A stretch of DNA of 64,000 nt from a virus (Duplodnaviria > Caudoviricetes): positions 9,313-73,312 of IMG/VR virus record IMGVR_UViG_3300012344_000002. The stretch is one strand, 5' to 3'. Positions 4,074 through 64,000 of the stretch are shown piece after piece. The notes beneath the pieces were generated by a model. It ran no database searches. It was not told the DNA's origin and saw only the letters and a program-made list of their open reading frames with translations. A program made the position numbers and the translations under genes. Position 1 is the first letter of the stretch, and every line of letters begins with the position of its first letter.

Positions 4074-4074
4074 C

Positions 4075-4977
4075 ATGATAGACGAAAACTTACATAAATT
4101 CGTTGATACTCTATTTGGAGATAGTCCTTTAGCTAAGTTTGCTACTGCTACTTTAGATAATTCTATGAATAGAGTTATTCAGAATAAACCTACAGTAACT
4201 ATCTTAGCTGATAGTATTACTGAAGATGGTCATAGATTGACTACCTTTCAGTTAAAATTCTGGAGAGCTATCTTACCAGAAATTACTAGACACAGATGTT
4301 TTAGCTTCTGTGTAAGAAGTTCTAGGGCTAATCCTACTGCTAATATCATTAAGCAAGTAGATACAGAGCCATGGGGTCCTGTAGAATTTGGTTCTAATCA
4401 GAAAGGTATGACCGCAGGTAAACCTTTAGAAGGTACAGATTTAGAACAAGCAGAGTTTCAATGGAAGTTAGCAGCAGGTCAGGCTGTGCTTACAGCTAAT
4501 GCTTTATTAGACTTAAATGTTCATAAACAAGTAGTTAATAGAGTACTAGAGCCATACACTTATAGTGATATGGTATTAGCTGGTACAGACTTTGATAACT
4601 TCTTTAAATTAAGAGAAGCACCAGATGCTCAGCCAGAAATTAGAGAGCTAGCAGTAGCTATGCATAAAGCCCTCGATAACAGTGAACCAAAGCTCTTACA
4701 GAAAGGTGAGTGGCATTTGCCATATATTACCTCATCTGATAGAGAAATGGCCACCGTTGACGAGCTATGCAAGGTTTCCTGCGCTAGATGTGCTAGAGTA
4801 TCTTATAAGGCTTTTGATGGTACTAGCTCTATTCAGAAAGATTTAGAGTTATTTAATAAATTACAAACATCAGGTCATTGGTCACCAATGGAATTTGTAG
4901 CAACTCCATGTGATGATAAAGATTACAGATTATCTAACTATAAAGGTTATAACCAATATAGAAGATTCTGTGAATAA
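4075..4977 (+). CDS. thyX: Flavin-dependent thymidylate synthase
   Basis: EITRHRCFSFCVRSSRA (RHRx7SxR), HKQVVNRVLEP, NFFKLR, SCARCARVSY, GHWSPMEF. Confidence 0.9.
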   Translation: MIDENLHKFVDTLFGDSPLAKFATATLDNSMNRVIQNKPTVTILADSITEDGHRLTTFQLKFWRAILPEITRHRCFSFCVRSSRANPTANIIKQVDTEPWGPVEFGSNQKGMTAGKPLEGTDLEQAEFQWKLAAGQAVLTANALLDLNVHKQVVNRVLEPYTYSDMVLAGTDFDNFFKLREAPDAQPEIRELAVAMHKALDNSEPKLLQKGEWHLPYITSSDREMATVDELCKVSCARCARVSYKAFDGTSSIQKDLELFNKLQTSGHWSPMEFVATPCDDKDYRLSNYKGYNQYRRFCE

Positions 4978-45118: not shown

Positions 45119-47248
45119 ATGAAAGTAATTAATAAATCAGGATGTATTAATGAGTGGAACAATGAAAAAATAGTAACTGCTATTAATAAAGCAGCATCTA
45201 GAGTTGATTGTCCTATTACTCATAATCAAGCTATAACTATAGCTAATGCTTGTAAAAAAGTAGCAGGTAAATATCTTAAAAATAATTGTATTTCCTCTGC
45301 TAAATTACATGAAATAGTTATTAGTCAGTTAGTTCATCATAATTTTAATTTAATAGCTAGTGCTTATCAGGAATACCGAGACTATAAGAATACCTATGCT
45401 AAATCATGGGAGCAACTTAAAGAAGATGCAGACCAAATTATCTTTTTAGGTGATAGAGAAAATGCTAACTTTGATAGTTCTTTAGTATCCACAAAAGGCT
45501 CACTTGTAAAGGGTGCTCTAACAAAAGAATTATATAAACAATTTTATCTTTCTAAAACAGAAAAATTCCTTACTAAACGAGGAGATATTTATATCCATGA
45601 CCTTAGGGATATGATTTTTGGTTCAGTAAATTGTTGTTTATTTGATATTGGTAACGTTTTAAAGGGTGGCTTTAAAATGTCTGGTATTAATTATACAGAA
45701 CCAAAAACAGTATTATCAGCACTACAGGTAATAGGTGATATTACTTTAGTAGCTACTGCTCAACAGTTTGGTGGATTTACTTTAGCAGAGATAGATAAAG
45801 TATTGCTTTACTATGTAAATAAATCATTTAATTACTATCTAAATAAATATACAGAATATAAAGTAGAAGACCCTGCTAAAAGAGCCAAAGAAGATACATT
45901 ACGTGAGTTAAGACAAGGTTTTCAATCTTTAGAGTTAAAGCTTAATACTGTACCATCAAGTAGAGGTGATTTTGCTTTTACTACATTAACCTTTGGTCAG
46001 TGGGATTATTCTTTATCAGATTCTGATAAGGAATGGTTATATTGGATTGGTTCTACTATGTTAGAGACTCGTAGACATGGTTACGATGGTGTACCTGTAG
46101 TATTTCCTAAATTAGTTTATCTATATGATAAAACACAGATAGAAAAAGATACATGGTCTGCTAAATTATTTGATGAAGCAGTAAAAACCAGTGCACAATG
46201 TATGTATCCTGATTACTTAAGCCTTACAGGTAATATAGAACAGAACCAAGTAGGTATGGAATACCATTTATATAACAAGATTATTAGTCCTATGGGCTGT
46301 CGTGCCTATTTAAGTCATTGGATGGATCCAAAGACTAATAAAGTAGTTACAGTAGGTAGATGTAATATTGGTGCAGTATCACTTAATATCCCATTAATTA
46401 TTGCAGTAGCTAAAAAAGAATTTAGTACATCATGGAAGGATGCTTTCTGGAATTTATTAGCTGATAGATTACAGGTAATACGAGAGTTTCATTGTAAACG
46501 ATATGAAATTATTAAACATACCAAAGCATCTACTAATCCTTTAGCTTTTACTCAAGGAGGTTTTTATAACGGTTATAAACAACCTGATGAAGAGATAGGA
46601 GATTTAACCGATTATATGACCGCTTCATTTGGTATTACTGCTTTAAATGAAGCAACCATGTTGTGGTGTGGTAAATCACTTTATGAAGACAAAGCTATAT
46701 TTGCTAATAAAGTAATTGATTTTATCTTAGCTAAATTAGCTAAGTATAAAGAACAAGACCATCATTTATATGCTTTATACGGTACTCCTGCAGAGTCTTT
46801 ATGCGGTACGCAAGCTACTCAGTATAGAGAATATACAGGAGATACTCAGTTTGGTGATTATTTTAGTAATAGTTTCCATTGTCATGTATCAGAAAATATA
46901 ACTCCTATTGAAAAACAAGACGCTGAGTATGAAGCTTTCCATAAAGTAGCTGGAGGACACATTCAATATGTTAGACTAGATAACCCATCTAATATAGAAG
47001 CTGTAAAAGCTATTATAGAACGTGGTATGTCTCTTGGATTTTATCAAGGAGTAAATTTCGATGCCTGTTATTGCAGCGATTGTGGGAATAGCTTTACTAA
47101 CGGTGGTATCACTTGTCCTAAATGTGGTAGCCATAATATTACCACTATTAGCCGTGTTTGTGGCTATTTGGGCTATAGTAACATCAATGGTAAATCACGA
47201 ATGAATGATAGTAAATTAGCAGAAATTAAAGATAGGAAATCTATGTAA
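45119..47248 (+). CDS. nrdD: Anaerobic (class III) ribonucleotide reductase with N-terminal ATP cone
   Basis: YIHDL, MGCRAYL, GRCNIGAVSLN, YGTPAESL, Zn ribbon CSDC...CPKC, glycyl-radical RVCGYLG. Confidence 0.95.
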   Translation: MKVINKSGCINEWNNEKIVTAINKAASRVDCPITHNQAITIANACKKVAGKYLKNNCISSAKLHEIVISQLVHHNFNLIASAYQEYRDYKNTYAKSWEQLKEDADQIIFLGDRENANFDSSLVSTKGSLVKGALTKELYKQFYLSKTEKFLTKRGDIYIHDLRDMIFGSVNCCLFDIGNVLKGGFKMSGINYTEPKTVLSALQVIGDITLVATAQQFGGFTLAEIDKVLLYYVNKSFNYYLNKYTEYKVEDPAKRAKEDTLRELRQGFQSLELKLNTVPSSRGDFAFTTLTFGQWDYSLSDSDKEWLYWIGSTMLETRRHGYDGVPVVFPKLVYLYDKTQIEKDTWSAKLFDEAVKTSAQCMYPDYLSLTGNIEQNQVGMEYHLYNKIISPMGCRAYLSHWMDPKTNKVVTVGRCNIGAVSLNIPLIIAVAKKEFSTSWKDAFWNLLADRLQVIREFHCKRYEIIKHTKASTNPLAFTQGGFYNGYKQPDEEIGDLTDYMTASFGITALNEATMLWCGKSLYEDKAIFANKVIDFILAKLAKYKEQDHHLYALYGTPAESLCGTQATQYREYTGDTQFGDYFSNSFHCHVSENITPIEKQDAEYEAFHKVAGGHIQYVRLDNPSNIEAVKAIIERGMSLGFYQGVNFDACYCSDCGNSFTNGGITCPKCGSHNITTISRVCGYLGYSNINGKSRMNDSKLAEIKDRKSM

Positions 47249-47700
47249 TGAATTACTTAGAACTAAATAAATATGATACTGCTAATGGTCCCGGTATTAG
47301 AGTTTCTTTATTTATTGCAGGTTGTACTCTTAAATGTAAAGGATGCTTTAATAAAAAATCTTGGGACTTTAATGCAGGTAAACCTTTTACTAAAGATACT
47401 TTAGCTAAAGTTTATGAATACTTATCTAAACCTTATATTACAGGTTTAAGTATTTTAGGTGGAGACCCACTAGAACCACAGAACCAAACTGGTGTATTAT
47501 CATTAGTTAATGGAGTACATACAGTATTTCCAGATAAGACAATTTGGCTTTGGACTGGTAGGACTTATAGAACCATTAAAAGTAATCCTATATTAAATTA
47601 TATAGATACTTTAGTAGATGGTCCTTATATAGAACATCTAAAAGAAGACCTCCCATTTAGAGGTAGTTCAAATCAAAATATTATATTTCTGAGGAAATGA
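47248..47700 (+). CDS. nrdG: Anaerobic RNR activase
   Basis: NGPGIRVSLFIAGCTLKCKGCFN, LGGDP, VDGPY, FRGSSNQ. Confidence 0.95.
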   Translation: MNYLELNKYDTANGPGIRVSLFIAGCTLKCKGCFNKKSWDFNAGKPFTKDTLAKVYEYLSKPYITGLSILGGDPLEPQNQTGVLSLVNGVHTVFPDKTIWLWTGRTYRTIKSNPILNYIDTLVDGPYIEHLKEDLPFRGSSNQNIIFLRK

Positions 47701-48122
47701 TGAATAAGAAAATTTTAAAATTTAAAGCTCTTCATATTGATGCTGTTATACCTACTAAAGCTCATCCTACAGATGCAGGATATGATTTATATGCTGTAGA
47801 GGATAAATGGCTTACCATTAATAAACCTACTTTAATTAAAACAGGTATAGCTATGGAAATTCCTAAGGGCTGCGTAGGTGATATTCGTCCTCGTTCTGGA
47901 TTAAGTGCTAAGGGTGTAACTGTAGCCTATGGTACTGTTGATTCTGGATATAGAGGTGAAGTTAAAGTAAATATGAAGGCTTGGTGCCATAAGATTCATA
48001 AAGGAGATAGAATTGCTCAGTTAGTAATTCTACCTTTAGTATCTTTTACCAATGAACAGTTTGATAATGAACTAAGTAAGTCAGATAGAGGAACCAAGGG
48101 ATTTGGTTCTACTGGTAAGTAG
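47697..48122 (+). CDS. dut: Trimeric dUTPase
   Basis: AGYDL, RPRSG, GTVDSGYRGE, RIAQL, RG-x2-GFGSTG. Confidence 0.95.
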   Translation: MMNKKILKFKALHIDAVIPTKAHPTDAGYDLYAVEDKWLTINKPTLIKTGIAMEIPKGCVGDIRPRSGLSAKGVTVAYGTVDSGYRGEVKVNMKAWCHKIHKGDRIAQLVILPLVSFTNEQFDNELSKSDRGTKGFGSTGK

Positions 48123-50981: not shown

Positions 50982-51007
50982 AATTTTAATCTATGAGCGT
51001 TTTTAAT

Positions 51008-51568
51008 ATGAAAATAGGCATTACTACAACTAAGTTATGGGATGACAATATTCATCTTGTATTTAAGCGTCTATATAACTTACATAACTATATTAACTTC
51101 TCATTTATAGAAGGAGTTAATAGACCTAATTGTGAAGCTATAGCTAAACAATTTAAGATGTATTGTATTGGTTCTTTATTTTATAAAGACCATGACTTTA
51201 AAAATCAATTAATAGAAGCATGTGAACTAGCTGATAAATGTAATGTTAAGTATCTTATGCTTGGTTCAGGTAGATACAGGCCAGCAATAGAACAAGAGAC
51301 TTCTTATACAGAGTTATTTTCTATAGCTTATAAATATAATAAAACTTTATTATTTGAACCAATAGCTAATACAGGTATTAACTGTGTTGCTGATATTAAT
51401 AAATACAATCCTACAGAAGTTCATATATGCTTACCTTGCTTAGAAGCTATAGGAGAGTCTCCTGAATTTATTTTAGGAAATGTAGTTAATTGTCATGTAA
51501 CGCCTGATTTATTGGTAAAATACATGTCTTACTTAAATAAACTAGAGAAGGTAACAATAGAATTATGA
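51008..51568 (+). CDS. Sugar-phosphate isomerase/epimerase-like TIM-barrel protein (shortened)
   Basis: MKIGI start, LMLGSGRYR (cf. LVFGSPxxR), LLFEP, CHVT metal-ligand positions. Confidence 0.6.
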   Translation: MKIGITTTKLWDDNIHLVFKRLYNLHNYINFSFIEGVNRPNCEAIAKQFKMYCIGSLFYKDHDFKNQLIEACELADKCNVKYLMLGSGRYRPAIEQETSYTELFSIAYKYNKTLLFEPIANTGINCVADINKYNPTEVHICLPCLEAIGESPEFILGNVVNCHVTPDLLVKYMSYLNKLEKVTIEL

Positions 51569-52539
51569 TTAGAGTTGGTATTATAGGTGGTGGTTTTTAT
51601 GGCTTATTTATAGCCAGTTATTTAACCCGTAAAGGCTATTATGTAAGGGTATTAGATACTAATCAACCTAAAGCATCTCAAGCCTGTCAGGCTAGACTGC
51701 ATAATGGTATGTTCTATTCTAGGTCATTATCAGATTTAAAATGCTGTATTAATAATGGAGCTACTTTTTATAAATGGTATAGAGATTTTATTATTAAGGA
51801 TTTTAATAGCTACTACTTAGTAGATAAAAACTCTAATGTATCCTTTGACTCATTTAAAAAATTAGCCAAAGAAAACAAACTTAGAGTTAAACCATGTAAA
51901 TTAGACTATGTAAATACAACTAATGTACAAGGTATCTTTAAAGCTAAAGAATACTCTATAGATATTCAAGGCTTACTAGACCATTTACTTAATACATTAA
52001 ATGAAGCTCCTGAATGTGCTCATGCCTATAAGTTAAAGAACCTATCTACAGGTATAGATGTATGTTCAGACCATGGTACATATCATTTTGATAAAGTTAT
52101 TGTTTGTGCTTATGGTGGCATTAATCCTATATTAAATAGTAGTGGGTATGAACCAATAGAAATGAAAGAAGTTAAACAACATATCTATTACTTTGAGGAT
52201 AACTTACCTAATGATGTACATGCAGTAGTAGATGGTTCTTATTGGAATACTATGATACATAGAGAACCAGAGAAAGATATAACTAAATCACTTATAGCTA
52301 CTAATGTTTATTATGATAATTCAGTTATAGAGATAGAATGGGATAGAGTATTACAGTTGGTTCATCATTACATACCTGAAGTAAATATGTATTATAGAGA
52401 TAGAAAGGAATTTACTAAATTCTTATCTACTAATACTAGACAAGCTTTATTTACTCAAGTAGATAAGAATATCTATACTGTATTTGCAGGTAAGCTACCT
52501 AATGTATTTAGTATATTAAAGGACTTAGATAGTATTTAA
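51565..52539 (+). CDS. FAD-dependent oxidoreductase (DAO-like)
   Basis: IIGGGFYG Rossmann motif, AS-x3-QARLHNG-x2-YSRS, VIVCAYGGIN, VFAGK. Confidence 0.85.
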   Translation: MIRVGIIGGGFYGLFIASYLTRKGYYVRVLDTNQPKASQACQARLHNGMFYSRSLSDLKCCINNGATFYKWYRDFIIKDFNSYYLVDKNSNVSFDSFKKLAKENKLRVKPCKLDYVNTTNVQGIFKAKEYSIDIQGLLDHLLNTLNEAPECAHAYKLKNLSTGIDVCSDHGTYHFDKVIVCAYGGINPILNSSGYEPIEMKEVKQHIYYFEDNLPNDVHAVVDGSYWNTMIHREPEKDITKSLIATNVYYDNSVIEIEWDRVLQLVHHYIPEVNMYYRDRKEFTKFLSTNTRQALFTQVDKNIYTVFAGKLPNVFSILKDLDSI

Positions 52540-52562
52540 AAAGGCTCCGAAGAGCCTTTTTA
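52539..52562. terminator. Bidirectional terminator (cUUCGg loop on the minus-strand transcript)
   Basis: AAAAGGCTC-CGAA-GAGCCTTTT between convergent genes. Confidence 0.85.
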
Positions 52563-52564
52563 AG

Positions 52565-52801
52565 TTACTTAATTCTAGCTGCCTCTCTAGCCTCATCTGT
52601 AGTAGTAATATACTTAGGAGGCTTTTCTGTAGATGGCTTATCATTAGGTCGAGCATGGTCTCTAGCAATACGAGCATACTCTCTAGCTTCATCTGTAGTA
52701 GTAGGTTGCTTATTAGGGATTGGGTCTGCTTTATGTTCTACTTTATTATGAGAAGCTAGCTCTCTAGCTTCATCAGTAGATGTAGGATTACCATTAATCA
52801 T
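52565..52801 (-). CDS. Small protein with three T(T/S)TDEARE repeats (78 aa)
   Basis: GAGGT RBS favours the ATG at 52801; own terminator; repeats are in frame. Confidence 0.7.
   Translation of the reverse strand: MINGNPTSTDEARELASHNKVEHKADPIPNKQPTTTDEAREYARIARDHARPNDKPSTEKPPKYITTTDEAREAARIK
52583..52786. repeat. Three 27-bp direct repeats (52583-609, 52679-705, 52760-786)
   Basis: Consensus CTCTCTAGCTTCATCTGTAGTAGTAGG; neighbouring copies share 24/27 nt; periods 96 and 81 nt. Confidence 0.85.
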
Positions 52802-52826
52802 AGGATACCTCAATAAATAAGTTAAT

Positions 52827-52852
52827 TGAATATTGGTTTTAAACCAAATTCA
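52827..52852. promoter_or_regulatory. Operator-like inverted repeat in the divergent intergenic region
   Basis: TGAAT-A-TTGGTTT-T-AAACCAA-ATTCA. Confidence 0.45.
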
Positions 52853-52885
52853 TTGTATATCAAATCTATTTTATAAGGAATAAAT

Positions 52886-53662
52886 ATGAATGAAGGATTA
52901 AATGTCTTAATAGGACATACTGGATTTATTGGTTCAAGTTTGACCCAAGGAATATATGATTTAAAGATTAATTCTAAAGTTATATTAGCTTATGGTACAC
53001 CTGCTAATATTATTACTATTGCTGCTCCTTCAGGCGTTAAGTATTTAGCTAATAAAGACCCAGATAAAGATGCTATGTCTTGTATGTCTTTATTAACTAC
53101 TGTAAAGAATTTTGTAGGAACCAAGAAAATATTTCTTATCTCTACTATAGATGCTTTATGCAGTACCAATGAACCATATGGTAAGAATAGGGCATTGTTG
53201 GTTCAATCTTTAAAAGAATATTGTAATGAAAAAAATATAGAATTATTTGTATTCTACCTAGGTATGACTTATGGTAGAAATGCTCGTAAGGGTATGATTT
53301 ATGACTTCCAACACAATGATGCTAGATACTATACTACTGGTTCATACCAACTCTACAATGTAAATTGGTTAGAAGATGATATGATGCTATGTGCTGATAA
53401 AGGTATACATGAAGCTGTATTAGCTTCTGAACCAATACAAGTAAAGGAAATAGCTAAAGTTATGAATGTATCTTTAGAAGGAGCACCTAAAGCAGGTGGA
53501 GCTAGATATAAAGTAAAAGCCCTAGGCTTACCTTTAATTAAAAAGGAAAAAGTATTAGAGTCTTTATCTGAAGATACTGTAAGACCTGCAGTATACGACT
53601 GGGATACTGAAATAAAGCGCTTAGTAGAAGAACATGCATTTAGTAAAGACCTTAGGAAATAA
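52886..53662 (+). CDS. NAD-dependent epimerase/dehydratase (extended SDR-like)
   Basis: LIGHTGFIGSSL, K-x2-AN-x2-P-x2-D, LISTID, PYGKNR. Confidence 0.8.
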   Translation: MNEGLNVLIGHTGFIGSSLTQGIYDLKINSKVILAYGTPANIITIAAPSGVKYLANKDPDKDAMSCMSLLTTVKNFVGTKKIFLISTIDALCSTNEPYGKNRALLVQSLKEYCNEKNIELFVFYLGMTYGRNARKGMIYDFQHNDARYYTTGSYQLYNVNWLEDDMMLCADKGIHEAVLASEPIQVKEIAKVMNVSLEGAPKAGGARYKVKALGLPLIKKEKVLESLSEDTVRPAVYDWDTEIKRLVEEHAFSKDLRK

Positions 53663-53666
53663 TTAA

Positions 53667-54482
53667 ATGGATAAAATCAATTTAGAATATTATAAAAGAG
53701 GCAAGATTAAAATAGATGTCATTTTAACTAATAGATGTAATCTTCAATGTTCTGCTTGTATGTTTGGTACTAATACTAATAAGATTCCTAAGTCAGAATA
53801 TGATTTTAATCAATTTAAAGAAGATTTAACCTATTTAGCTCAATGGAAAGAAGCCATACAAGTATTAGTATTCTTAGGTGGAGAACCTACTGTAAATCCT
53901 AACTGGCTCTCTTATATTGTATTTGCTAAAAAACTATTACCTGATACTGAACTTTGGATAATTACTAATGGTTTAGTATTAAATAAACAAAAAGAATATT
54001 TAAAGTTTATAAAGGCTTTAAATGTTAGAGTACTTTTATCAGAATACCCCGAAAATAGAAAAGATATTCAAGAGTTAAATCATAAGCTAGATTTATATCA
54101 TATAGACTGGTGTTACTTACAAGCAGAACATACTCCACAATTTAAAGCTATGTTTACAGCTCCTATTACTACTCTAAAACCTATTAACAAAGATGTAGCA
54201 AAGACACATATAGAATGTGGATATGGCTGTCTGTATATAAATAATGGATACTTTGGTGCTTGTGGTATTCAGTATAGTATTCCTATGAGAAATCAACTAT
54301 TTGGTACTAATTATAAAATAGACTTACTACCTATAAAGAGTATTAAGTCTAAGGAAGAATTGGTAGAGTTACCTATGTCATGGCATCCAGATATATGTAA
54401 GTATTGCCAACCGGGAACCAAACAATATAAATGGATACCACATACAATTAAGCATATTAGGAAGGAAGATTATATCTTATAG
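53667..54482 (+). CDS. Radical SAM enzyme with Cys-containing twitch/SPASM-like C-terminus
   Basis: TNRCNLQCSAC, LGGEP, ITNG, ECGYGC-x10-C, ICKYC. Confidence 0.9.
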   Translation: MDKINLEYYKRGKIKIDVILTNRCNLQCSACMFGTNTNKIPKSEYDFNQFKEDLTYLAQWKEAIQVLVFLGGEPTVNPNWLSYIVFAKKLLPDTELWIITNGLVLNKQKEYLKFIKALNVRVLLSEYPENRKDIQELNHKLDLYHIDWCYLQAEHTPQFKAMFTAPITTLKPINKDVAKTHIECGYGCLYINNGYFGACGIQYSIPMRNQLFGTNYKIDLLPIKSIKSKEELVELPMSWHPDICKYCQPGTKQYKWIPHTIKHIRKEDYIL

Positions 54483-55450
54483 AGGTTTTCTAAAATCTTT
54501 ATAGCATTTGCTTTATTTTTAAATATAAACTTAATAAAGGTTAAATTGTATTTAATATTATCAATTACTTTATCTGGCAGTAGATGCTTATTCTGTAAAG
54601 CATATTTAGCAAATATAGGGTAGTACTTTAATTTAACTATCTGCCAAGGATTAATATCATTAATGTTAAATCTTTCAAACATTAAATGAATATCGGGGGA
54701 AAAATGTATTAAATAAGGGTCACGCTTAATTCTGTACTCTTTCTTCCATAAGAGATGTACTACTAGTTGAGCGTCATCTAAAATACATTTTTCCTCTTCA
54801 GGTATTAAATAACAAAAGAATGATTGGTCTTGTACGTTAAATAACTCTTCACAATCTTTAGACATTTCTTTAAAAGTATTCCAGATATTATTAGGTAACT
54901 TTCTTAAATTTAAAAATCCCATACCTAAATTAAAATAAGACTCATACTTAAAAGTTTTATCTGTTTTTAAATACCTGCCTTTATTATTCATTTTATAGCT
55001 GGTAACAATATCATATGGTTCTCTAGCTCCTCCATAAGTTTTATTACTTTGTATAAAAGCTTTAACTAATTCTGATGGGTCTCTTCTAAATACCGAATCA
55101 AAATCCACTGTTACTAATATGTCATACTTACCTTGGTTCTTTAAATCCTCTATATGTTTAATTCTATCTATAAAGAAACATGCAGATTTATAAGGTGCCC
55201 AACCTAAAGTAATATATTTATTAACATCTACTTCTTTATAAGCCTGAGGCATTAAAGAATATATAAAATGAAGATTCTCATCTTCTAGAGGAGATAATAG
55301 TTTTTTAAAATATTCTATAGATTCATTAGAATCAGTCTGTATTTCCCACTCTACTGAATCAGTGTTTAAATCTTTAAAAGATGATAGACAGTTATAAGCA
55401 AACCATCCATACATCTCACCTACAGCAATACTAGAATATAATACTTTCAT
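54470..55450 (-). CDS. GT-A fold glycosyltransferase, GT8-like
   Basis: VTVDFDSV (DxD), YFNLGMGFLNL, QDQSFF, LIHF. Confidence 0.75.
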   Translation of the reverse strand: MKVLYSSIAVGEMYGWFAYNCLSSFKDLNTDSVEWEIQTDSNESIEYFKKLLSPLEDENLHFIYSLMPQAYKEVDVNKYITLGWAPYKSACFFIDRIKHIEDLKNQGKYDILVTVDFDSVFRRDPSELVKAFIQSNKTYGGAREPYDIVTSYKMNNKGRYLKTDKTFKYESYFNLGMGFLNLRKLPNNIWNTFKEMSKDCEELFNVQDQSFFCYLIPEEEKCILDDAQLVVHLLWKKEYRIKRDPYLIHFSPDIHLMFERFNINDINPWQIVKLKYYPIFAKYALQNKHLLPDKVIDNIKYNLTFIKFIFKNKANAIKILENLYKI

Positions 55451-56292
55451 TAGATACTCTTAACTTTAATATTAGTAGACCAAGGAACCAAGTCAGCATT
55501 AACACAATGGTCACAGAAAGCATACTTAGTATTTAATACTGCTAATATGTCTTCTATAGATTTAAAGTCAGTTATATTAAATAACTCGCTTCCCTTTACA
55601 ATAGGTATATCCATATGTTTTTTATCTGACCATTGATTGTTCTGTACTTCAAATACATTACTACATGTATACAATTTATCTTCCCATAAAGGTACACAAG
55701 CCATACCTTTAAGAAAAGCTCTGCAATCAGCAGCAGTCCATCCTTTAGGACGTTTCTGCCCATTAAGTACATAGTAATGGTGATGGAACCATGCTTGTGT
55801 ATCTGGTATTTGTTTTACATCTATATCCTGCATAGATGTATGAATAAAATGCCACTTAATTCCTAAGGAAGTTAAGTATCTACCTAACTTATCATAATCA
55901 TAATTAGGTAAGTTATATTTACTAATATCTAATTGATAATCATTAGCTAGAATAGCATCTATAAGCTTATTAGACATCTTAGGAGCCATAAGACCATTAG
56001 TAACTATATCTCTATTAAATAGTGGTAAATGGTCATGTACATAAGTCATTATTTCTATAAGATGAGGATACAGTAAAGGCTCACCACCTAGTAAGCCTAA
56101 TACTACAGCATGGTCTCCTTTGTATCTTTCTTTAAGAAAATGTAAATGACTAAATCCTTTAATTACTTTTTCTGGGTCAGCATCAAAGTTACTATTCTTA
56201 GAAGAACATCCATAACCACAATAATTACATCTTAAGTTACATCTTGTAGTTAATACTGGACTTAATACTAATTGTTTTACTTCACAAGTCAT
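55450..56292 (-). CDS. Radical SAM enzyme with Cys-containing twitch/SPASM-like C-terminus
   Basis: TTRCNLRCNYC, LLGGEPLL, VTNG, DISKY, DC-x8-C-x10-C, FCDHC. Confidence 0.9.
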   Translation of the reverse strand: MTCEVKQLVLSPVLTTRCNLRCNYCGYGCSSKNSNFDADPEKVIKGFSHLHFLKERYKGDHAVVLGLLGGEPLLYPHLIEIMTYVHDHLPLFNRDIVTNGLMAPKMSNKLIDAILANDYQLDISKYNLPNYDYDKLGRYLTSLGIKWHFIHTSMQDIDVKQIPDTQAWFHHHYYVLNGQKRPKGWTAADCRAFLKGMACVPLWEDKLYTCSNVFEVQNNQWSDKKHMDIPIVKGSELFNITDFKSIEDILAVLNTKYAFCDHCVNADLVPWSTNIKVKSI

Positions 56293-57261
56293 TTAATACT
56301 CCGGCTTTAAATCAGATTCCTTAGTCCTTGAACCAAAATACCCCCCCTCAAAAGAAGTAGGTACTTTAGCTAATTCAGCCTCAGATTCACTCTCCATAAC
56401 TTGTTGAGTTTTTTCCCAATATTGAGTAGTTAGATATATTTGATTTTGTAGTAATTCTTTATAAATAGTCTGTAATTCACTTTTAGTTAAATCTACCCAG
56501 AAATTACTATAAGCTCTAAAATGAATTTTCTTTTTACCATCTGTTGTAGCTAGAAGAGACTCTATATTTACTTTAGCTTGTAAATCACCATTAATGTATA
56601 AATTCTGTACACTAGAATTAAAATAAGTATCAGTACAGTTTAAACCTTTAAGACGTAGGTACTCTTGTTTAATTTCATTATACTTAGCGGCTTTCTTATC
56701 TAAGAAAGTATCTTCTTGTATTACATTATCTTGTAAAAAAGCATCCAAATCAGCATATAAGCTATCACTAGCTATCCAGTTAAATGGAGGAAGTTTCTTT
56801 AATAGATTCTCAGTATTAAAATCTAAAATAGAAATCTTACCTAATTTAAAATCTTCTATAAATTGATTAAGAATATTTGTAGCGTTATCACGCCACTTTA
56901 AAAATACATTAGCTTCTTTTTTATATGTCTCATTAGTAGAGAATAAATAAGAAATACAATTATCTGCATTAGCATATGTTTTAGTCTGTGCTTGAGTATC
57001 TACATAGTTATAGAACCAAGAAGTAATATTCTTAATTGCTTGGTTCTGAGAAATGTTAATACTTGGTGCAATATCTGCTTGCTGTACTTCTGTGATACTA
57101 CAACCATGGGCTTTAACATGCTGTAATAAAGCTTTACCAATATCAGTAGTAGTATCAGCAATAAAATTACCAAAGTCTTCCCCTTCAACAATTAAGCCTT
57201 CAAAGAGGATAGCTTGTTTTTCATTAGAACACCATTTAGCAGATAAGTATGAAATATCCAT
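56293..57261 (-). CDS. Tail-fibre assembly chaperone-like fusion (middle LD-x2-A-x3-Y...WRD domain plus DUF4376-like C-terminus)
   Basis: YVDTQAQTKTY-x5-CISY...FLKWRD...LP-x2-W, then F-x-A-x2-N-x4-LT-x2-EL-x2-I-x14-W. Confidence 0.6.
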   Translation of the reverse strand: MDISYLSAKWCSNEKQAILFEGLIVEGEDFGNFIADTTTDIGKALLQHVKAHGCSITEVQQADIAPSINISQNQAIKNITSWFYNYVDTQAQTKTYANADNCISYLFSTNETYKKEANVFLKWRDNATNILNQFIEDFKLGKISILDFNTENLLKKLPPFNWIASDSLYADLDAFLQDNVIQEDTFLDKKAAKYNEIKQEYLRLKGLNCTDTYFNSSVQNLYINGDLQAKVNIESLLATTDGKKKIHFRAYSNFWVDLTKSELQTIYKELLQNQIYLTTQYWEKTQQVMESESEAELAKVPTSFEGGYFGSRTKESDLKPEY

Positions 57262-57262
57262 A

Positions 57263-58750
57263 TTAAATTCCTAATTCAGTTAAGTTATATTGAAGAACCA
57301 AATCATTATACTTATTTAAAAGGCTACTGTGTTTTAAATAATCAATAATTTTTAAAAATATAGGGTCTAGGTCTTTTTTAATTGTATCTACATAATTATG
57401 ATACAAAGTAAAAAACATAGTCTCAGGTATGTTTGCTACAAAGTAACCCAAAACCACTTTATTAACAGTATTACATTTATCATTTCTTATATTTTGATAT
57501 GGTTTAGTAGGACCACAATAATGGTATATGATAGGAGTAGCTTTACTGGTTACAGCTCTATGATGAGCAGTAAAGTTATTTATATCTAATAGATATGTAA
57601 TCTGTTTATAAAAGGTATAGTTAATAAAGTCTTGTTCATTATAGAAACCTACATCACCCTTATGAGGAGTACATTTCCATTTATAATATAAGTCTTTAAA
57701 ACTATAGTTACCTTTCTTATAAATGATAAAGCCACCATTAATATACTTAAAGCAATTAATTAATGTAGCTCCGTGTATTGCTAGTATATCTCTTCCACCA
57801 AAGATATTACCTGACGAGATACTAGCCGTTAGTAATGTACTCTTAAGATTACCTTGACATAGTATATCGCAGTCACACATTACAGTAAGGTCATACATAG
57901 GAGTAAGTTCATCTAATATACTCATCTTACTATCTACATAATCTCTATTAAAGTGTAACTTTGTTTTGGCTTTAGTATGATAAGAATATTGAATTACTTC
58001 TATATTAGGAGAAATTTTACTATATCTTTTCTGTAATTCTTCTACTGCTTTCTTGGTTCCATTAACATAGTAAACTTTAAATAATTTAATATCATTAAAA
58101 GCAAACATACTATGCAGGAATACATAAGTAGGTTCTGTGTACTCTATTGAAGTAACACAAGCAAAACAAATATTCTTATTAATTAAACTTCTATCAGAAG
58201 GTTTAGCTAACACCCCTAACTTATTATAAATAAGCTGTACTCCATAAACCTTAGCTGTAACCAGCTCTATACCTGAAAAGCTTAACTTATAATTAGAAAA
58301 TATTTTAGGATAGATAAGTTTTAATATTTGTTCACATCTATCTAAATAAGACTGACTACTTTTAGCTGTAGAACCAAAGGTATAGACATAAGCTAAGTTA
58401 GATAAATAAGTAGCATTATTCTTATTAATTTCTACAGTATTTAACAAATTATCTATAGATGTAGGAAACCAAATAAAATATTTAGTTTGAGGATTCTTTA
58501 AATATACAGAGCCTTTAAAAATTAAAGGAGAATCTTCTGTTATATTTAATTCTTTATCTTTATAGGAGTCTAAATAAGTATCTAGACTCTTTAAAGGAAA
58601 GAATTGTGTAGTTAAATTAATTGTAATATCAGTATCTTTTTCTTTAATAAAAGAATACTGATGTCCTTTATTTAGATAAAAGAAAGCAGCTTTAAAGGCT
58701 TTTAAAGTATCTTCTGAGGCTGCTTCTGTAATATTAATAAATACTTTCAT
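57263..58750 (-). CDS. Unknown N-terminal domain fused to a GT8-like glycosyltransferase
   Basis: SKMSI, MCDCDILC (DxD), YINGGFII, NEQDFINY, IYHYCGPTKPY. Confidence 0.85.
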   Translation of the reverse strand: MKVFINITEAASEDTLKAFKAAFFYLNKGHQYSFIKEKDTDITINLTTQFFPLKSLDTYLDSYKDKELNITEDSPLIFKGSVYLKNPQTKYFIWFPTSIDNLLNTVEINKNNATYLSNLAYVYTFGSTAKSSQSYLDRCEQILKLIYPKIFSNYKLSFSGIELVTAKVYGVQLIYNKLGVLAKPSDRSLINKNICFACVTSIEYTEPTYVFLHSMFAFNDIKLFKVYYVNGTKKAVEELQKRYSKISPNIEVIQYSYHTKAKTKLHFNRDYVDSKMSILDELTPMYDLTVMCDCDILCQGNLKSTLLTASISSGNIFGGRDILAIHGATLINCFKYINGGFIIYKKGNYSFKDLYYKWKCTPHKGDVGFYNEQDFINYTFYKQITYLLDINNFTAHHRAVTSKATPIIYHYCGPTKPYQNIRNDKCNTVNKVVLGYFVANIPETMFFTLYHNYVDTIKKDLDPIFLKIIDYLKHSSLLNKYNDLVLQYNLTELGI

Positions 58751-59469
58751 TAGTTTAACTTCAAAGTTACTCTTACCATCTGTTGGCTTTCATTATTAAT
58801 AGGAACATTAAAGCTACATGAAGCAGTACCTGTTTTAATAGTAACCCATGTACCATTAATATTAATTTGTAATGAATAAGAACCAGATGCTGATGTATTT
58901 AAAGTATAACCTACTTGACCCGGATAATTAGACCAACGAGAATCTGTCCAATTACCCCAGCCACTATTAGTACTATACCAACCAGCCCACGTGTAAAGTA
59001 CATTATGACCATTACAAGTAAAGTTACTCATTACAATACGCATATCACCATTAGCAATAGCAAAGTTATTGATATGAATATTACTTTTAGTATCCCAGTA
59101 GTATCTATATTGAGTTTTACTACCCCATGATATACATACACCATATATATTATAGTTAGTACATACATCTACTTGTTTAGTACCTTCATGTAAAGTATGT
59201 GTAGCTTTATAGTATACATCACAGGTAGCTTTACCTATTTGAGCATGATACCAAGTAGGTCTATACCAAGTGCCATTACCTCTTACTATCATAGGTGCTC
59301 TTTTTAATACATGAACTCCACCATAAAGTATAGGGTCTCCTATATTACCTCCTTGGTATAAAGGTATATAACCTTGACCAGCTACCACAATACTAGGTGT
59401 AGTAATCTTATTACCTTGCATAAACAGTGGATAAGTTGTACCACCATAAGGAATTTTAATAGTTGCCAT
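58750..59469 (-). CDS. Putative receptor-binding/adhesin or fibre-tip protein
   Basis: Aromatic/Gly-rich beta composition (WAGWYSTNSGWGNW); directly follows two tail-fibre genes. Confidence 0.5.
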   Translation of the reverse strand: MATIKIPYGGTTYPLFMQGNKITTPSIVVAGQGYIPLYQGGNIGDPILYGGVHVLKRAPMIVRGNGTWYRPTWYHAQIGKATCDVYYKATHTLHEGTKQVDVCTNYNIYGVCISWGSKTQYRYYWDTKSNIHINNFAIANGDMRIVMSNFTCNGHNVLYTWAGWYSTNSGWGNWTDSRWSNYPGQVGYTLNTSASGSYSLQININGTWVTIKTGTASCSFNVPINNESQQMVRVTLKLN

Positions 59470-59473
59470 TATC

Positions 59474-60454
59474 TTATCCTATTGTTATTAAATATCCTGA
59501 TACTTTAACACCATTACTAAAATTATGCTGAGCAGATATAGTTTGAGCAGAGGTTTGTTTAACATACGTATCTGTAATAGTAGCACCTGTTCCATCTTGA
59601 GTAGCTTTAACAGCATTTGTACTATTGGTAGCATAATCAGCTGAAGTAGCTCTTTTAGCTGAATCTGCATTAGTAGCCTTATCAGATGTTTTAGCATGAT
59701 TTACTGATTGAGAGCTAATATTACCTGTAGTAATAAGTCCCCATGTAGTTACATCTACTGTAACATTTACATAGTTTTTATGGGTAGTATCCCATCCAAA
59801 TTTAATTCTATCAGGATAATTACCTTTAAGAGCATAGGTATTAACTATATTTCTATTACTACTATCGTTAGTAGCAGATTTAGCTGAACCAGTAATATTA
59901 CCTGTAACATTACCAACTACATTTCCTGTTAGATTACCATGAAATGTAGAAGTAACTGTACCTGTAACTGTAAGGTTATTATTTATAGTAACAGCACCAG
60001 TTAAAGTACCTCCTGCTAAAGGTAGGTAACTATTCTTAATATTCTTAATATTAGTTTCAGTTACTAACTTAAAATCATCTATATCAATACCTTGTATAGC
60101 ATTAATCTTAGTATACAAAGCATGTATCTGAGAGTCATGATTATTAACTGTTTCTGTAAGTTTAGTTACATTATTAGTAGCTGTGGTAGCCATCTCAGAG
60201 ATTAATTTAACTTGTTTATTATTCTCTGTTACATAAGTATTATAAGAAGTTACTAAGTTATCATAAGTAGGTACTTTATCTATAATACTTTGATATTCTT
60301 TCTGTTTAACAGTTCTCGTAACATGTCTTTGTACTAGGATTCTACCTTCCCCATCTACCATATCTTTATTGGTATCCGGGTCTCTAATTGGAATATCTAC
60401 CCAATAATCTGCTTCTATAGGAGCATCTAAATTAGTTACTTTATATTTAGCCAT
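59474..60454 (-). CDS. Tail fibre protein B
   Basis: YLPLAGGTLTG, GNLTGNVVGNVTGNITG, A-x2-A-x2-A repeats; paralogous to 60458-61798. Confidence 0.8.
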   Translation of the reverse strand: MAKYKVTNLDAPIEADYWVDIPIRDPDTNKDMVDGEGRILVQRHVTRTVKQKEYQSIIDKVPTYDNLVTSYNTYVTENNKQVKLISEMATTATNNVTKLTETVNNHDSQIHALYTKINAIQGIDIDDFKLVTETNIKNIKNSYLPLAGGTLTGAVTINNNLTVTGTVTSTFHGNLTGNVVGNVTGNITGSAKSATNDSSNRNIVNTYALKGNYPDRIKFGWDTTHKNYVNVTVDVTTWGLITTGNISSQSVNHAKTSDKATNADSAKRATSADYATNSTNAVKATQDGTGATITDTYVKQTSAQTISAQHNFSNGVKVSGYLITIG

Positions 60455-60457
60455 ATT

Positions 60458-61798
60458 TTAACCTACTGTAATTGTATAACCTGATACTATAACACCCGAT
60501 GCAAAGTTATGATTATTAGTAATATAACCACTATCATTAGTAAACTGAGACACCTTGGTAGGTCTTCCAGATACACCACTCCATGCAACAGAACCAGCTG
60601 AATTAGAATAGTTAACTGAGAAATTAGCTGGGTTATAAACATACATGTTTGAGCCATCTTCACCGCCCCATAGCCATGTAGGCTGACCATCTTTACCATA
60701 CCAATTAAAATTAAGGTCAACGTCCCCTACTCTACGAGGGTAAGCTCTATCAGCCGATGTTGCATGAGAAGCATTAATAGCAGTAGTTGCACTACCAGCA
60801 CTTGTAGCATAGTCTGCATTTGTAGCTGTTGTAGCTTTATCAGCTAATTTAGCATGAGCAGCAATACCTGTTAAAGGTAAATACTTAGCTTTCTCTTGGT
60901 CTGTATAAGCATTAGCACTAACAATAGCTTCATTCTTTTTAGTATCAGCATATGCTTTAGCAGTATCTAAATTAGAAGCATTTTCTACTTTAGTAGCATA
61001 AGTATCAGTAATGTCATTGTTATTCTTATCTGCTACTGCTTTCTGCGCTTGTAATACATTATTAATGCTAAGAACAGAAGTAGTACCTGCTCCTTTAGTA
61101 ATAGTTAATGTAGCATTAGCACCTGTAATATCTTTAATATAGTTATCAGCAATATCTTGACCCAAAGCATCTTGGGTAGCTTTATCAGCTAAACCATAGA
61201 AAAATTTACCTTCTTCTGATACTTTAAATACTTTACCCCATGTAGTAGTACAATCTAATACGTCATTATTAGTAGAAAATGAAGCATAAGATGAAGAACC
61301 TGTAGGAGTTAAAGTAAGCACTGCTGTCTTGGGTGTCTGAATAGATACATCACCCTTTAATACACCACCTGTAATTAAATAAGCAGACTTCTTTAAAGCA
61401 TCAACATCAGCTTGTACTTCATCAATATCAATACCCTGAATACCATTAATCTTACCTTGGATAACACTAACAGTCTGAGTTAAGTCACTTAAGTCATTCT
61501 GAGTGCCTAATAGGTTATCATTAATAGAACCAATGTCACTATTAATAGAAGCCACTTTATCTTTAGCATATTTATCTAATGCAACAATAGCTTCTTTATT
61601 AGTATTAATCTGAGGTAAAGCATTTTTAATATTAGCAATACCTTTAGAATTAATAGAACGAGTAACATATCTCTTAACAAGAATGTTACCTTCACCATCT
61701 ACTTGGTCTATACCTGTATCAGGGTCTTTAGAAGGAATATCCTGATATAAATCAATTTCGATTGGTTCATCAGGATTAGTTACTTTAAATTTAGACAT
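60458..61798 (-). CDS. Tail fibre protein A
   Basis: KATQDALGQDI-x3-Y, YLPLTG, ATTATNADYATSAGSAT repeats, WSGVSGRPTKVSQFTNDSGYIT. Confidence 0.8.
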   Translation of the reverse strand: MSKFKVTNPDEPIEIDLYQDIPSKDPDTGIDQVDGEGNILVKRYVTRSINSKGIANIKNALPQINTNKEAIVALDKYAKDKVASINSDIGSINDNLLGTQNDLSDLTQTVSVIQGKINGIQGIDIDEVQADVDALKKSAYLITGGVLKGDVSIQTPKTAVLTLTPTGSSSYASFSTNNDVLDCTTTWGKVFKVSEEGKFFYGLADKATQDALGQDIADNYIKDITGANATLTITKGAGTTSVLSINNVLQAQKAVADKNNNDITDTYATKVENASNLDTAKAYADTKKNEAIVSANAYTDQEKAKYLPLTGIAAHAKLADKATTATNADYATSAGSATTAINASHATSADRAYPRRVGDVDLNFNWYGKDGQPTWLWGGEDGSNMYVYNPANFSVNYSNSAGSVAWSGVSGRPTKVSQFTNDSGYITNNHNFASGVIVSGYTITVG

Positions 61799-61806
61799 AT
61801 ACCACC

Positions 61807-63255
61807 TTAAATAAATTCAGTCATAGATGCAGGTACTAAGTATAACTTATTAGCATCAGTAGACTCATATAGATTAGTTAAAGAGTCTTTAAGCTCAGTA
61901 CGAAGCATAATACCTTTATTAATATAATTACCAATATTAGTAATATTATCCATATTATTAACGGTATTTATAATCTGAGGTAATGCTTTATATACAGCAT
62001 TAACATTATCTATAGATAATCCTAAATTATTAATTACATCAATATACGTAGCTGTAGTATTAACGTTATTAATAGAGCCAGCTACAGTAGTTACATGCTC
62101 TATGTTTGTATTGATGGTCTTAATAGCATCTAGGTTATCATTAATAGCTTGGATACTATCAGTATTAGCTGATAAGTTAATTACAGCATCTTTATAAGAA
62201 TTAACTAATGTAATAGCAGGTAAGTTTGTATTAAGATTCTTAATAATATCAATATTATCTGCTACAGTATTAACATTCTTAATATTAGAACCAACAATAT
62301 TAATATTGTCTTTGTTCTCTTGGATAGTTGTCATAACTTCTAAGTGAGAGTTAATCCAAGCTAAAGTATAGATATGAGGTACTACTGCATTAATATTATC
62401 AATGCTCTTAGAACAATTCTTAATATCTTCTAAGTAGTCTTCAATGATATGTATATCTTCTAATCCTGCTGATACATCAATAACATCATAAATAGAAGCA
62501 GATACTCTAGCAATGTTATTTAAGTCTTCATCAGATAAATCAGGAATAGATGTTTTAGAAGCATACTTATCAGATATTTCACCATTTGTAGAACCCTGAG
62601 GTAAGAACCATCCTAGTAATCTAGAATTAGATACTATAGCCTCATTTACAGAGCGTAAGGTATATCTATCATTAATGGTTCTATCCAAACTATATGCTAC
62701 CCATCTGGTTCCATTAAATGATAAGGTAACTATATTTAAGGCACCAATACTAGAGTCTAGTTTAGATACATCACCTAACCAATCTACTTGAGTAGTATCA
62801 AAAGTGTACTTAGTTCCTTCTTTAATATTAGTTAAGTATAAAGTAATTGTTAAGCATGACTGCTTATCAAAAGTATCAGCAAACTTAAATAATATATTAG
62901 GTGTATTTACATTAAAGAAGAATCTATGACTTACTGTAGGATCAATAACATATGTCCCTGTTGATATATCTGCTCGTACAATATTTTCATCTACATACTT
63001 AAATCTAGCTGCAATAGAACCATCCTGTAAATCAGAAATAAAAGGAACATCCTCTTTCTGACCTAACTCAGTACCTTTCCATACAGATAGTCTATTCTTA
63101 TCATCTGGGTTAATAGTTAGCTGACCAGATAGTCCTCTAAACTTAGGTATATCTGCTGTATGTGCTTGACGTAACCTAAAGTCATATACACCTGTTGGTT
63201 CAATCTCTTGATTAGAGAGAGTAGTATTAATGTCTTGTTTTACTTGATTATCCAT
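61807..63255 (-). CDS. Tail/collar structural protein with about 10-aa N/I-rich repeats
   Basis: Repeated NI-x2-V-x2-VA-x-NI units in the C-terminal half. Confidence 0.65.
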   Translation of the reverse strand: MDNQVKQDINTTLSNQEIEPTGVYDFRLRQAHTADIPKFRGLSGQLTINPDDKNRLSVWKGTELGQKEDVPFISDLQDGSIAARFKYVDENIVRADISTGTYVIDPTVSHRFFFNVNTPNILFKFADTFDKQSCLTITLYLTNIKEGTKYTFDTTQVDWLGDVSKLDSSIGALNIVTLSFNGTRWVAYSLDRTINDRYTLRSVNEAIVSNSRLLGWFLPQGSTNGEISDKYASKTSIPDLSDEDLNNIARVSASIYDVIDVSAGLEDIHIIEDYLEDIKNCSKSIDNINAVVPHIYTLAWINSHLEVMTTIQENKDNINIVGSNIKNVNTVADNIDIIKNLNTNLPAITLVNSYKDAVINLSANTDSIQAINDNLDAIKTINTNIEHVTTVAGSINNVNTTATYIDVINNLGLSIDNVNAVYKALPQIINTVNNMDNITNIGNYINKGIMLRTELKDSLTNLYESTDANKLYLVPASMTEFI

Positions 63256-64000
63256 TACTCATCTCCTGCTTCTTTAATAAACTGTACTTTACCTGTTAAT
63301 GCTTTTAAGTTCTTAGCAGAAATAGTAAGAATAGTACCTTTAGCTGCAAATAACTGCATGTTATCATCAAAGTATCCCTGAGGCTTCTTTAACTTAAGTA
63401 CTACAGTAATATCACGTTTAGTAATAGATTCCTGTATTTCAGCTTCAATATCTTCTGTGTTAGGTTTGGTTTCACCATAATAGTAATTAACAAACCAACC
63501 ATTAGAAGGGGCTGTAAATTCTTGTGTATAGGTATCTATATCTGTTTTCTTAATAGAACCAAGTAATACATTAATTCTGTTATCTTGGTCTGTTAATAGA
63601 GCATTAGAAGGAAGATTACTATTAAAGGTATCAATGAACTTAATAGTCTGGTCCATATAAGGATACAGAGTATTAATATCAGAAGTAACTTTAGTCATTT
63701 GTTTTTTAACTTCACTAATAGAATTTAGTAAAGGCTCTCGATTTAAGTTACATTCTTTAATAGAATCCAAGTTCTGTACTGCACTAATATATGTTGATAA
63801 GTTGTCATATAGAACATTAAACAATGGTGCGTTTTCACTTAATGTTTTAATGCTTTCTGATATATCACTTACATTAGTAATATCATCTTTAATAGTTAAT
63901 AATGCAGTAAACTTCTGTACTAAGTTCTTTTGCTCTTCTACTATCTCTGCAGCAGTCTTAATGTTGTTAATATTATCTGATAAATTAGTAATCTCATATC
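63255..64000 (-). CDS. Tail-associated protein, 5'-truncated by window edge
   Basis: Frame is open from 63998 (YEITNLSDNINNIKTAAE...) into the track ORF, so the TTG at 63824 is internal. Confidence 0.7.
   Translation of the reverse strand, partial: YEITNLSDNINNIKTAAEIVEEQKNLVQKFTALLTIKDDITNVSDISESIKTLSENAPLFNVLYDNLSTYISAVQNLDSIKECNLNREPLLNSISEVKKQMTKVTSDINTLYPYMDQTIKFIDTFNSNLPSNALLTDQDNRINVLLGSIKKTDIDTYTQEFTAPSNGWFVNYYYGETKPNTEDIEAEIQESITKRDITVVLKLKKPQGYFDDNMQLFAAKGTILTISAKNLKALTGKVQFIKEAGDE

Follow-up and report, generated by a model that had tools for sequence, protein, structure and literature searches.

Glycosyltransferase (GT) and radical S-adenosylmethionine (SAM) genes have already been described among the tail-fibre genes of marine myophages, as has the sharing of fibre and chaperone genes between schitoviruses and myoviruses. 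In the host recognition cluster (HRC) of pelagimyophages and cyanomyophages, GT8 genes were read as modifying the host O-chain against co-infection (Zaragoza-Solas et al. 2020, PMC7029224), and the Alteromonas schitovirus A5 and myovirus V22 have a tail fibre and DUF4376-chaperone module in common (PMC10579305, PMC7289586). A precedent for glycosylation of the virion itself comes from mycobacteriophages, in which the GTs are encoded in structural operons (Freeman 2023, cited in PMC12801897). The subject of the present analysis is a cassette in which two GT8-type genes, GT495 and GT326, stand with genes for tail fibres (fibA and fibB), a probable distal adhesin (p239), a candidate fibre chaperone (DUF322) and a radical SAM enzyme (rSAM280). 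It is found in a stretch of 64,000 nucleotides, here called the window, which is G000:9313-73312 of a 73,312-bp virus record (IMGVR_UViG_3300012344_000002, or G000), and it faces a convergent arm with further putative enzyme genes (p191, FAD324, p258 and a second radical SAM gene, rSAM271).

The locus resembles the HRC in that cassettes of GT8-type GTs and radical SAM enzymes are placed among tail-fibre genes in a hypervariable, recombining region. Unlike the HRC, it is carried by a 73-kb N4-like podophage backbone, it forms a compact module (5 + 4 genes), and its enzyme genes are interspersed one by one between those for adhesin and chaperone, with stop and start codons that overlap. As with A5 and V22, a host-recognition module with a fibre and a DUF4376 chaperone is common to schitovirus-type and myovirus-type phages; in those two phages, however, the chaperone directly follows the fibre, with no GT or radical SAM gene, whereas here an adhesin and a GT8 protein intervene. 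A small, separate and variable adhesin encoded right after the distal fibre gene, which presumably docks on the fibre tip, also recalls the T2/S16-type arrangement, reportedly made up of a gp37 fibre, a gp38 adhesin and a chaperone. In contrast to that arrangement, the model of p239 is a beta-sandwich, the polyglycine fold of a gp38-type adhesin was not recovered in structure searches, and no enzymes are known to be interleaved at this position in T-even phages. The mycobacteriophage case is similar in that phage GTs lie within a block of structural genes and the particles there are glycosylated by the phage's own enzymes; as summarized in the citing source, it differs in its Gram-positive-type host, its siphophage morphology and its capsid and tail-tube targets, and that summary reports no radical SAM enzyme. 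Three features are new here: the compact way in which, in an N4-like phage, genes are interleaved one by one between adhesin and chaperone; two natural alleles whose breakpoint falls at a gene junction; and a copy that crosses phage morphotypes.

We read the locus as a horizontally mobile cassette in the late operon of an N4-like phage, the GTs of which glycosylate a host-recognition component of the virion, and we give this reading a probability somewhat below one half (about 0.45). Its parts differ in strength. Late co-expression of the GTs with the fibres is well supported, both by operon membership and by late-promoter motifs in myophage relatives. A functional tie of the cassette to the host-recognition apparatus is likewise supported by the constant linkage to p239, by the presence of a chaperone inside the unit and by a block boundary that falls inside the fibre tip. 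Gene order, junctions, family assignments, membership of the late operon, mobility of the block and its unvarying linkage to p239 are established by the data; the enzyme activity, the identity of the sugar and a virion protein as its acceptor are the parts that we infer. If the fibre or adhesin is indeed glycosylated, this would add a post-translational layer to host range, with relevance to phage engineering and to immunogenicity in phage therapy. As a minimal, nine-gene version with recombination-defined borders, two natural alleles and a T4-like copy, the locus makes self-glycosylation of receptor-binding proteins by Gram-negative phages directly testable.

Glycosyltransferase genes at the end of a late run

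The phage was assigned to the N4-like podophages (Schitoviridae) on the basis of matches to the N4-type portal and to structural PHROG families and of a major capsid protein 69% identical to those of N4-like coliphages. It has a GC content of ~30%, encodes TerL and a gp67-type protein within a terminase/appendage late arm, and contains a 4157-aa open reading frame (ORF) which, judged by length, has the size of a virion RNA polymerase.

On the minus strand, the genes are ordered fibA, fibB, p239, GT495, DUF322, rSAM280 and GT326, with junction gaps of 3, 4, -1, 1, 0 and -1 nt. A preliminary description of the window, made from its sequence alone, had claimed this order and these gaps, and both are exactly confirmed by the coordinates. 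The nearest appendage-like gene ends 8 nt upstream of fibA. Beyond it in the upstream direction, still on the minus strand, come genes for a gp69-like protein, the large terminase, a structural protein of the virion and an appendage-like protein, all overlapping or abutting. The co-directional run from gp69-like/TerL to GT326 comprises 12 genes, with every junction at 8 nt or less, and ends against the convergent plus-strand arm (50993-54482). As the run starts with the gp69-like gene, the terminase and a structural protein, the GT genes are the last members of a late-gene run. The earlier proposal that the GTs are late genes co-expressed with the fibres is thereby well supported, together with the late-promoter motifs in relatives described below.

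Genes of this phage are generally packed tightly: outside the region, 57% of co-directional gene pairs are no more than 8 nt apart, and a run of eight would arise by chance with a probability of ~0.01. The junctions alone are therefore weak evidence, the eight-gene run being only moderately beyond chance, and the main weight of the linkage comes from gene order that is conserved in relatives, where the junctions p239/GT495 and GT495/DUF322 keep within the range of -10 to +1 nt even when the proteins are only ~50% identical. Two junctions carry a further signal. At 58750 (p239/GT495) and 55450 (rSAM280/GT326) the stop and start codons overlap by 1 nt in the sequence TAATG, and no AGGAG-like element precedes the start of GT495 or GT326, although one is present before fibA, p239, DUF322 and rSAM280. 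Judged by sequence, both pairs qualify as translationally coupled, and a TAATG overlap without a Shine-Dalgarno element fits termination-reinitiation, by which the output of enzyme would fall below that of the structural proteins.

The preliminary description had also seen no terminator between these genes. This holds to the extent that no convincing terminator is present; the sole terminator-like site on the minus strand of the region is a weak hairpin within the DUF322 coding sequence (Table 1). A scan for sigma-70-like promoters showed no enrichment (59 sites found versus 87 expected), such a scan being uninformative for an N4-like phage.

Probable adhesin, glycosyltransferases and candidate chaperone

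The two fibres agree in their first ~50 residues and, at the extreme C-terminus, in the motif HNF..GV.VSGY.IT.G. Residues 313-419 of fibA (107 residues) are 49% identical to an annotated tail-fibre protein in a tblastn comparison, and fibA has no significant PDB sequence match. Two successive appendage-like paralogues (~480 aa; 61807-64000 and on into G000:1-805) precede the two fibres with common ends; such duplication suggests a branched or dual-fibre host-recognition apparatus.

Immediately downstream, p239 shows a pattern that is probably that of an anchored, fast-evolving adhesin. Its homologues form a continuum (73 clusters at 50-89% identity), and the first ~35 residues are kept even in a remote relative, a 223-aa protein of the 154-kb contig L016. 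The AlphaFold2 model (predicted local distance difference test score 93.9) consists of the N-terminal part and a beta-sandwich; searches of this model with Foldseek and VIA-align returned no specific structural relative, only generic matches to C2 or carbohydrate-binding-module-like beta-sandwiches (Z <=5.7 or about 5-6). Linkage to the downstream genes is constant: p239 is directly followed by GT495 in all ten loci that hold both (six from IMG/VR and four from metagenomes, which include the same contigs recovered twice and hence represent about 7 distinct contigs), and DUF322 follows GT495 in each of the ten.

The assignment of GT495 to GT8 (PF01501) is marginal in Pfam (24.7 bits against a cut-off of 24.3), but extends over residues 203-420 and profile positions 9-251 of 253, and some homologues carry precomputed PF01501 annotations. 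GT8 is defined by a DxD and a C-terminal H-x-x-G-x-x-K-P motif, and D293xD295, H410, G413 and K416-P417 of GT495 are invariant in nine sequences down to 30% identity. The N-terminal ~190 aa have no DxD and align only weakly to a GT326-like domain (hhalign 45.6%), and at the same position 630-aa relatives of GT495 hold a full GT326-like domain (hhalign 99.2%, E 8e-20). By this comparison the N-terminus is a decayed, dead remnant of a GT326-like domain. The protein had previously been described as a GT8 fusion; with this remnant ahead of its intact GT8 domain, it is better described as a decayed two-GT protein. Homologues fall mainly into two identity classes, with a few intermediates (81-87%). 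The family has no significant PDB sequence match, and a distant homologue, P0042, had no match in the viral contigs searched.

GT326 and its 14 homologues match no Pfam or NCBIfam model. Profile comparison nevertheless aligns the family with the GT8 domain of the GT495 family (hhalign 95.8%, E 7e-9, 268 columns); the K-P part of the C-terminal GT8 motif is absent. It is a rare family (21 representatives among 1.8 billion), and its profile gave no significant PDB sequence match. We count the invariance of the catalytic motifs in both GT families as support for the glycosylation reading.

DUF322 exceeds the DUF4376 (PF14301) cut-off narrowly (25.6 versus 25.0 bits, residues 190-296), matches the PHROG tail-fibre family phrog_1348 and has many homologues with precomputed PF14301. 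In Alteromonas and Campylobacter systems, experiments have shown DUF4376 proteins to be chaperones that tail-fibre function requires (PMC10579305, PMC7882524). As the preliminary description noted, the gene lies downstream of the first GT; it is separated from fibB by p239 and GT495, and these two intervene in every relative, so that DUF322 is not encoded directly downstream of a client fibre gene. Its model matched only helical-hairpin structures (Z <=7.8), with no evidence for a new fold. The homologues fall into two discrete identity classes, across both of which the N-terminal ~50 residues are nearly invariant. This conservation is consistent with binding of the N-terminus to the conserved fibre tip. 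We considered that DUF322 might not be a chaperone, given that it co-varies with the GTs and not with the fibres; the near-invariant N-terminus counters this.

Relatives and the choice of acceptor

A copy of the cassette is found in L002 (IMGVR_UViG_3300037400_005024), a 158-kb T4-like contig that encodes topoisomerase II and a baseplate hub/lysozyme of T4 type. L002:8996-14287 is 87.6% identical in DNA to window positions 59555-54416, from the last ~25 codons of fibB, which form the upstream edge of the common block, through GT326. In L002 the block is headed by a 93-aa, GTG-start mini-fibre with a coiled-coil-like stretch and the same C-terminal tip. The T4 late-promoter consensus TATAAATA stands 37 nt upstream of the first gene of the block, and most other copies of this motif in the L002 locus are also just upstream of gene starts. 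L016 represents a remote version, in which the radical SAM, DUF322-like and GT proteins are 24-30% identical and short matches to the N-terminus of p239 and to the fibre tip reach 44%. There the run opens with the gene of a 731-aa tail fibre whose tip is related; a radical SAM gene begins 2 nt further on, p239-like, DUF322-N-like and two-domain GT genes come next, and the run faces FAD324, three radical SAM genes and p258. The late-promoter motif occurs 40 nt before the L016 fibre gene. Two overlapping copies are also present at L016:6151-6167, 30-46 nt upstream of the p239-like gene and inside the end of the preceding gene, and may represent an extra late promoter for the adhesin.

Among near-identical N4-like phages, four records (L004-L006 and L027) carry what amounts to a second allele. 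In these, fibB (91-95%), p239 (83-92%), and FAD324 and the small TTTDEARE-repeat protein (together 91-98%) are close to their window counterparts, and GT495 (49-56%), DUF322 (46%), rSAM280 (32-34%), GT326 (36-38%) and p258 (43-44%) are strongly diverged. Identity at the DNA level falls off precisely at the p239/GT495 junction (58749) and is regained near 52841, from which it follows that the six genes from GT495 to p258 behave as one exchange unit that extends over both convergent arms. A core set of radical SAM, SDR (short-chain dehydrogenase/reductase) p258-like, FAD324-like and GT326-like genes recurs without p239 or DUF322 at L015:5059-10870, between head-like and tail/baseplate genes, and at L017:9168-14783, near a DNA polymerase gene.

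When these results are placed together, the following course of events can be hypothesized. The convergent arm, with its isomerase-like protein, FAD-dependent oxidoreductase and SDR, would act with the radical SAM enzymes to produce an unusual activated sugar. Both GT8-type enzymes would be translated by reinitiation at TAATG, at levels below that of the preceding structural protein, and would transfer this sugar to part of the virion's host-recognition apparatus, p239 or the fibre tip being the likeliest target, during cytoplasmic assembly of the fibre by the DUF322 chaperone. The most economical acceptor is a virion protein, because the enzymes are soluble, made last, and present in the cytoplasm beside adhesin and chaperone. 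It is also conceivable, though we regard it as doubtful, that N4-like and T4-like phages swap a self-contained "glyco-adhesin" cassette, with at least two discrete, swappable glycotypes among near-identical phages and a radical-SAM-tailored sugar that the cassette's own GT8 enzymes place on the tip adhesin during its assembly by the DUF4376 chaperone. If so, the glycan of the receptor-binding apparatus would be inherited and would recombine, and would help to determine adsorption or the evasion of host or gut factors.

Several points weigh against glycosylation of the virion, and the virion substrate that the preliminary description preferred over DNA modification is a tentative reading, though still the best one. 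GT8 enzymes are best known from lipopolysaccharide (LPS) core synthesis. A near-identical fibB/p239 pair (88-95%) occurs with GT and chaperone alleles that are only 37-49% identical, from which it follows that there is no tight co-adaptation between the enzymes and the adhesin's variable part. The core set that lacks p239 and DUF322 in L015 and L017 indicates a chemistry that predates its coupling to this fibre and is more general. The tight junctions are the norm of the genome, as described above, and promoters inside coding sequence may exist.

In an alternative reading, the GT8 enzymes and the sugar arm alter the LPS, lipooligosaccharide or capsule of the infected cell, by which the receptor would be masked against superinfection or progeny kept from sticking to debris; the genes and the receptor-binding module would then travel together, as both follow one receptor. 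We consider this unlikely, yet it is the alternative with the most in its favour. GT8 includes LPS-core transferases, the weak and non-significant PDB matches of GT326 include LgtC, and the GT block, with its two discrete alleles, is reminiscent of serotype cassettes; moreover, GT8 is the commonest GT family in the pelagimyophage HRC, where it was read as O-chain modification (PMC7029224). Expression coupled to the end of a late operon would, however, be poorly timed for an outer surface that already exists in a lytic infection, and no flippase, bactoprenol transferase or membrane protein was found in the cluster. The GT alleles do not co-vary with p239 or fibB, and the conserved unit includes both chaperone and p239. 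Another view needs no functional link at all: in it the enzymes are cargo in a recombination-prone host-recognition region and tight packing mimics coupling. The packing statistics, the position of the core set away from fibres in L015 and L017, and the mosaic block exchanged as cassettes are all compatible with cargo, to which we nonetheless assign a low probability: both podophage and myophage backbones keep the order adhesin, GT, chaperone, [rSAM], GT, even when divergence reaches 50%, p239 was never without GT495 in the loci recovered, and the boundary of the common block falls inside the fibre tip.

Synthesis of a glycosylated or otherwise hypermodified base by the radical SAM, FAD, SDR and GT proteins is improbable in our view. 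The preliminary description had expected genes for DNA modification to lie among those for replication; this argument is weak, as the cluster adjoins an auxiliary nucleotide-metabolism region on top of the convergent sugar/radical SAM arm, and in relatives the module borders topoisomerase II (L002) or DNA polymerase (L017) genes. Radical SAM and flavin enzymes are part of known thymidine hypermodification pathways, and this genome has a thymidylate-synthase homologue beside a kinase-like protein, a dUTPase and an anaerobic ribonucleotide reductase (RNR). On the other hand, no GT8-type enzyme is known to use DNA as its acceptor, N4-like phages whose DNA is unmodified commonly encode thymidylate synthase and RNR, and the genes in question belong to the terminase/fibre late operon with constant linkage to p239, fibre tip and chaperone. 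Least probable of all is that the radical SAM and GT enzymes mature a peptide, be it the TTTDEARE-repeat protein (52565-52801) or another small product. The repeat protein is 93-95% conserved and has its own Shine-Dalgarno element and terminator inside the locus, and many peptide maturases are among the best NCBIfam matches of the radical SAM core, all of them far below cut-off. Yet these matches are to the generic core only, and the repeat gene lies outside the swapped cassette and is absent from L002 and L003, which retain the enzymes. Glycosylation of a virion host-recognition component remains the reading we prefer.

Convergent arm, genome ends and host leads

The coordinates of the cassette, of the appendage-like genes upstream and of the convergent arm are collected in Table 1.

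Table 1. Genes and signals of the cassette and its surroundings, in window coordinates
Feature	Position	Strand	Description
Appendage/tail-fibre-like protein, C-terminal part	63255-64000, on into G000:1-805	minus	N-terminal part matches PHROG tail fibre/appendage families
Appendage-like protein, 482 aa, N4 gp66-type	61807-63255	minus	PHROG phrog_29955 (appendage), E 1e-9; phrog_22284 (tail fibre)
fibA, tail fibre A, 446 aa	60458-61798	minus	tblastn match to tail-fibre protein
fibB, tail fibre B, 326 aa	59474-60454	minus	Ends shared with fibA
p239, probable distal adhesin, 239 aa	58750-59469	minus	Conserved N-terminal ~35 aa and variable beta-sandwich (residues 79-239)
GT495	57263-58750	minus	N-terminal ~190 aa degenerate remnant; C-terminal GT8 domain; start in TAATG overlap
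DUF322, Tfa-type tail-fibre chaperone candidate, 322 aa	56293-57261	minus	Conserved N-terminal ~50 aa, helical middle, C-terminal DUF4376
Weak hairpin	56896-56879	minus	Inside DUF322 coding sequence; 7 bp, -10.7 kcal/mol, no adjacent U-run
rSAM280, radical SAM	55450-56292	minus	C18xxxC22xxC25; five more Cys in the C-terminal part, possibly for an auxiliary cluster
GT326, divergent GT8-like GT-A enzyme	54470-55450	minus	D116xD118 and H249 invariant; start in TAATG overlap
rSAM271, second radical SAM	53667-54482	plus	CxxxCxxC at residues 24-31; convergent with GT326, 3' overlap 13 nt
p258, SDR epimerase/reductase-like (RmlD/Epimerase type; lead only)	52886-53662	plus	Within swapped cassette
78-aa protein with three T(T/S)TDEARE repeats	52565-52801	minus	Own Shine-Dalgarno (GAGGT) and terminator
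FAD324, DAO-type FAD-dependent oxidoreductase	51565-52539	plus	Family match
p191, possible xylose-isomerase-like TIM barrel	50993-51568	plus	Weak match, restricted to positional counterparts in L015 and L016

Both radical SAM proteins exceed the cut-off of Radical_SAM (PF04055; 29.5 bits), rSAM280 with 33.2 and rSAM271 with 54.3 bits. Against the NCBIfam SPASM/twitch subfamilies, only their N-terminal core was matched, at 20-48 bits versus cut-offs of 170-650, and the further C-terminal Cys residues that both possess were matched by no auxiliary-cluster model. rSAM271 is absent from L004-L006 and L027, and in L002 (14278-14413) an internal deletion has left only its first 25 and last 21 codons; the module can therefore dispense with it. 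In L027 the rSAM280 homologue is part of a 548-aa ORF (L027:6259-7905) with an extra N-terminal region of ~270 aa.

In the convergent arm, FAD324, p258 and p191 had no significant PDB sequence matches. Among 50,697 GenBank phage records, no relative of GT495, p239, FAD324 or rSAM280 was present, and rSAM271 gave only remote core matches. The TTTDEARE-repeat gene, just outside the swapped cassette, ends in a strong GC hairpin with a T-run, and its product is 93-95% conserved in close relatives.

Two further groups of genes concern nucleotide metabolism. A nucleotide-kinase-like gene lies directly upstream of the thymidylate-synthase homologue at window 3363-4977 (plus strand); this homologue may be a true synthase or a hydroxymethylase. 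Inserted between the two late arms, at 45119-48122 (plus strand), are genes for the anaerobic NrdD, its activase and the dUTPase. In a pattern-limited search NrdD showed 59% identity to Sutterella genes, which is a weak lead to the host; the GC content of Sutterella, which we take to be much higher than the 30% of the phage, is at odds with it. The two tRNAs gave no information on the host. A BFVD match to an uncultured podovirus and the Sutterella relative of NrdD may point to an association with the human gut, as a lead only.

The record carries a 99-nt direct terminal repeat (window 63902-64000, identical to G000:1-99), which falls within an appendage-like gene; the minus-strand ORF that is open at the end of the window continues across the end of the record into G000:1-805. 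As the repeat lies inside a gene, the record is to be seen as a circularly closed assembly and its ends not as true genome ends.

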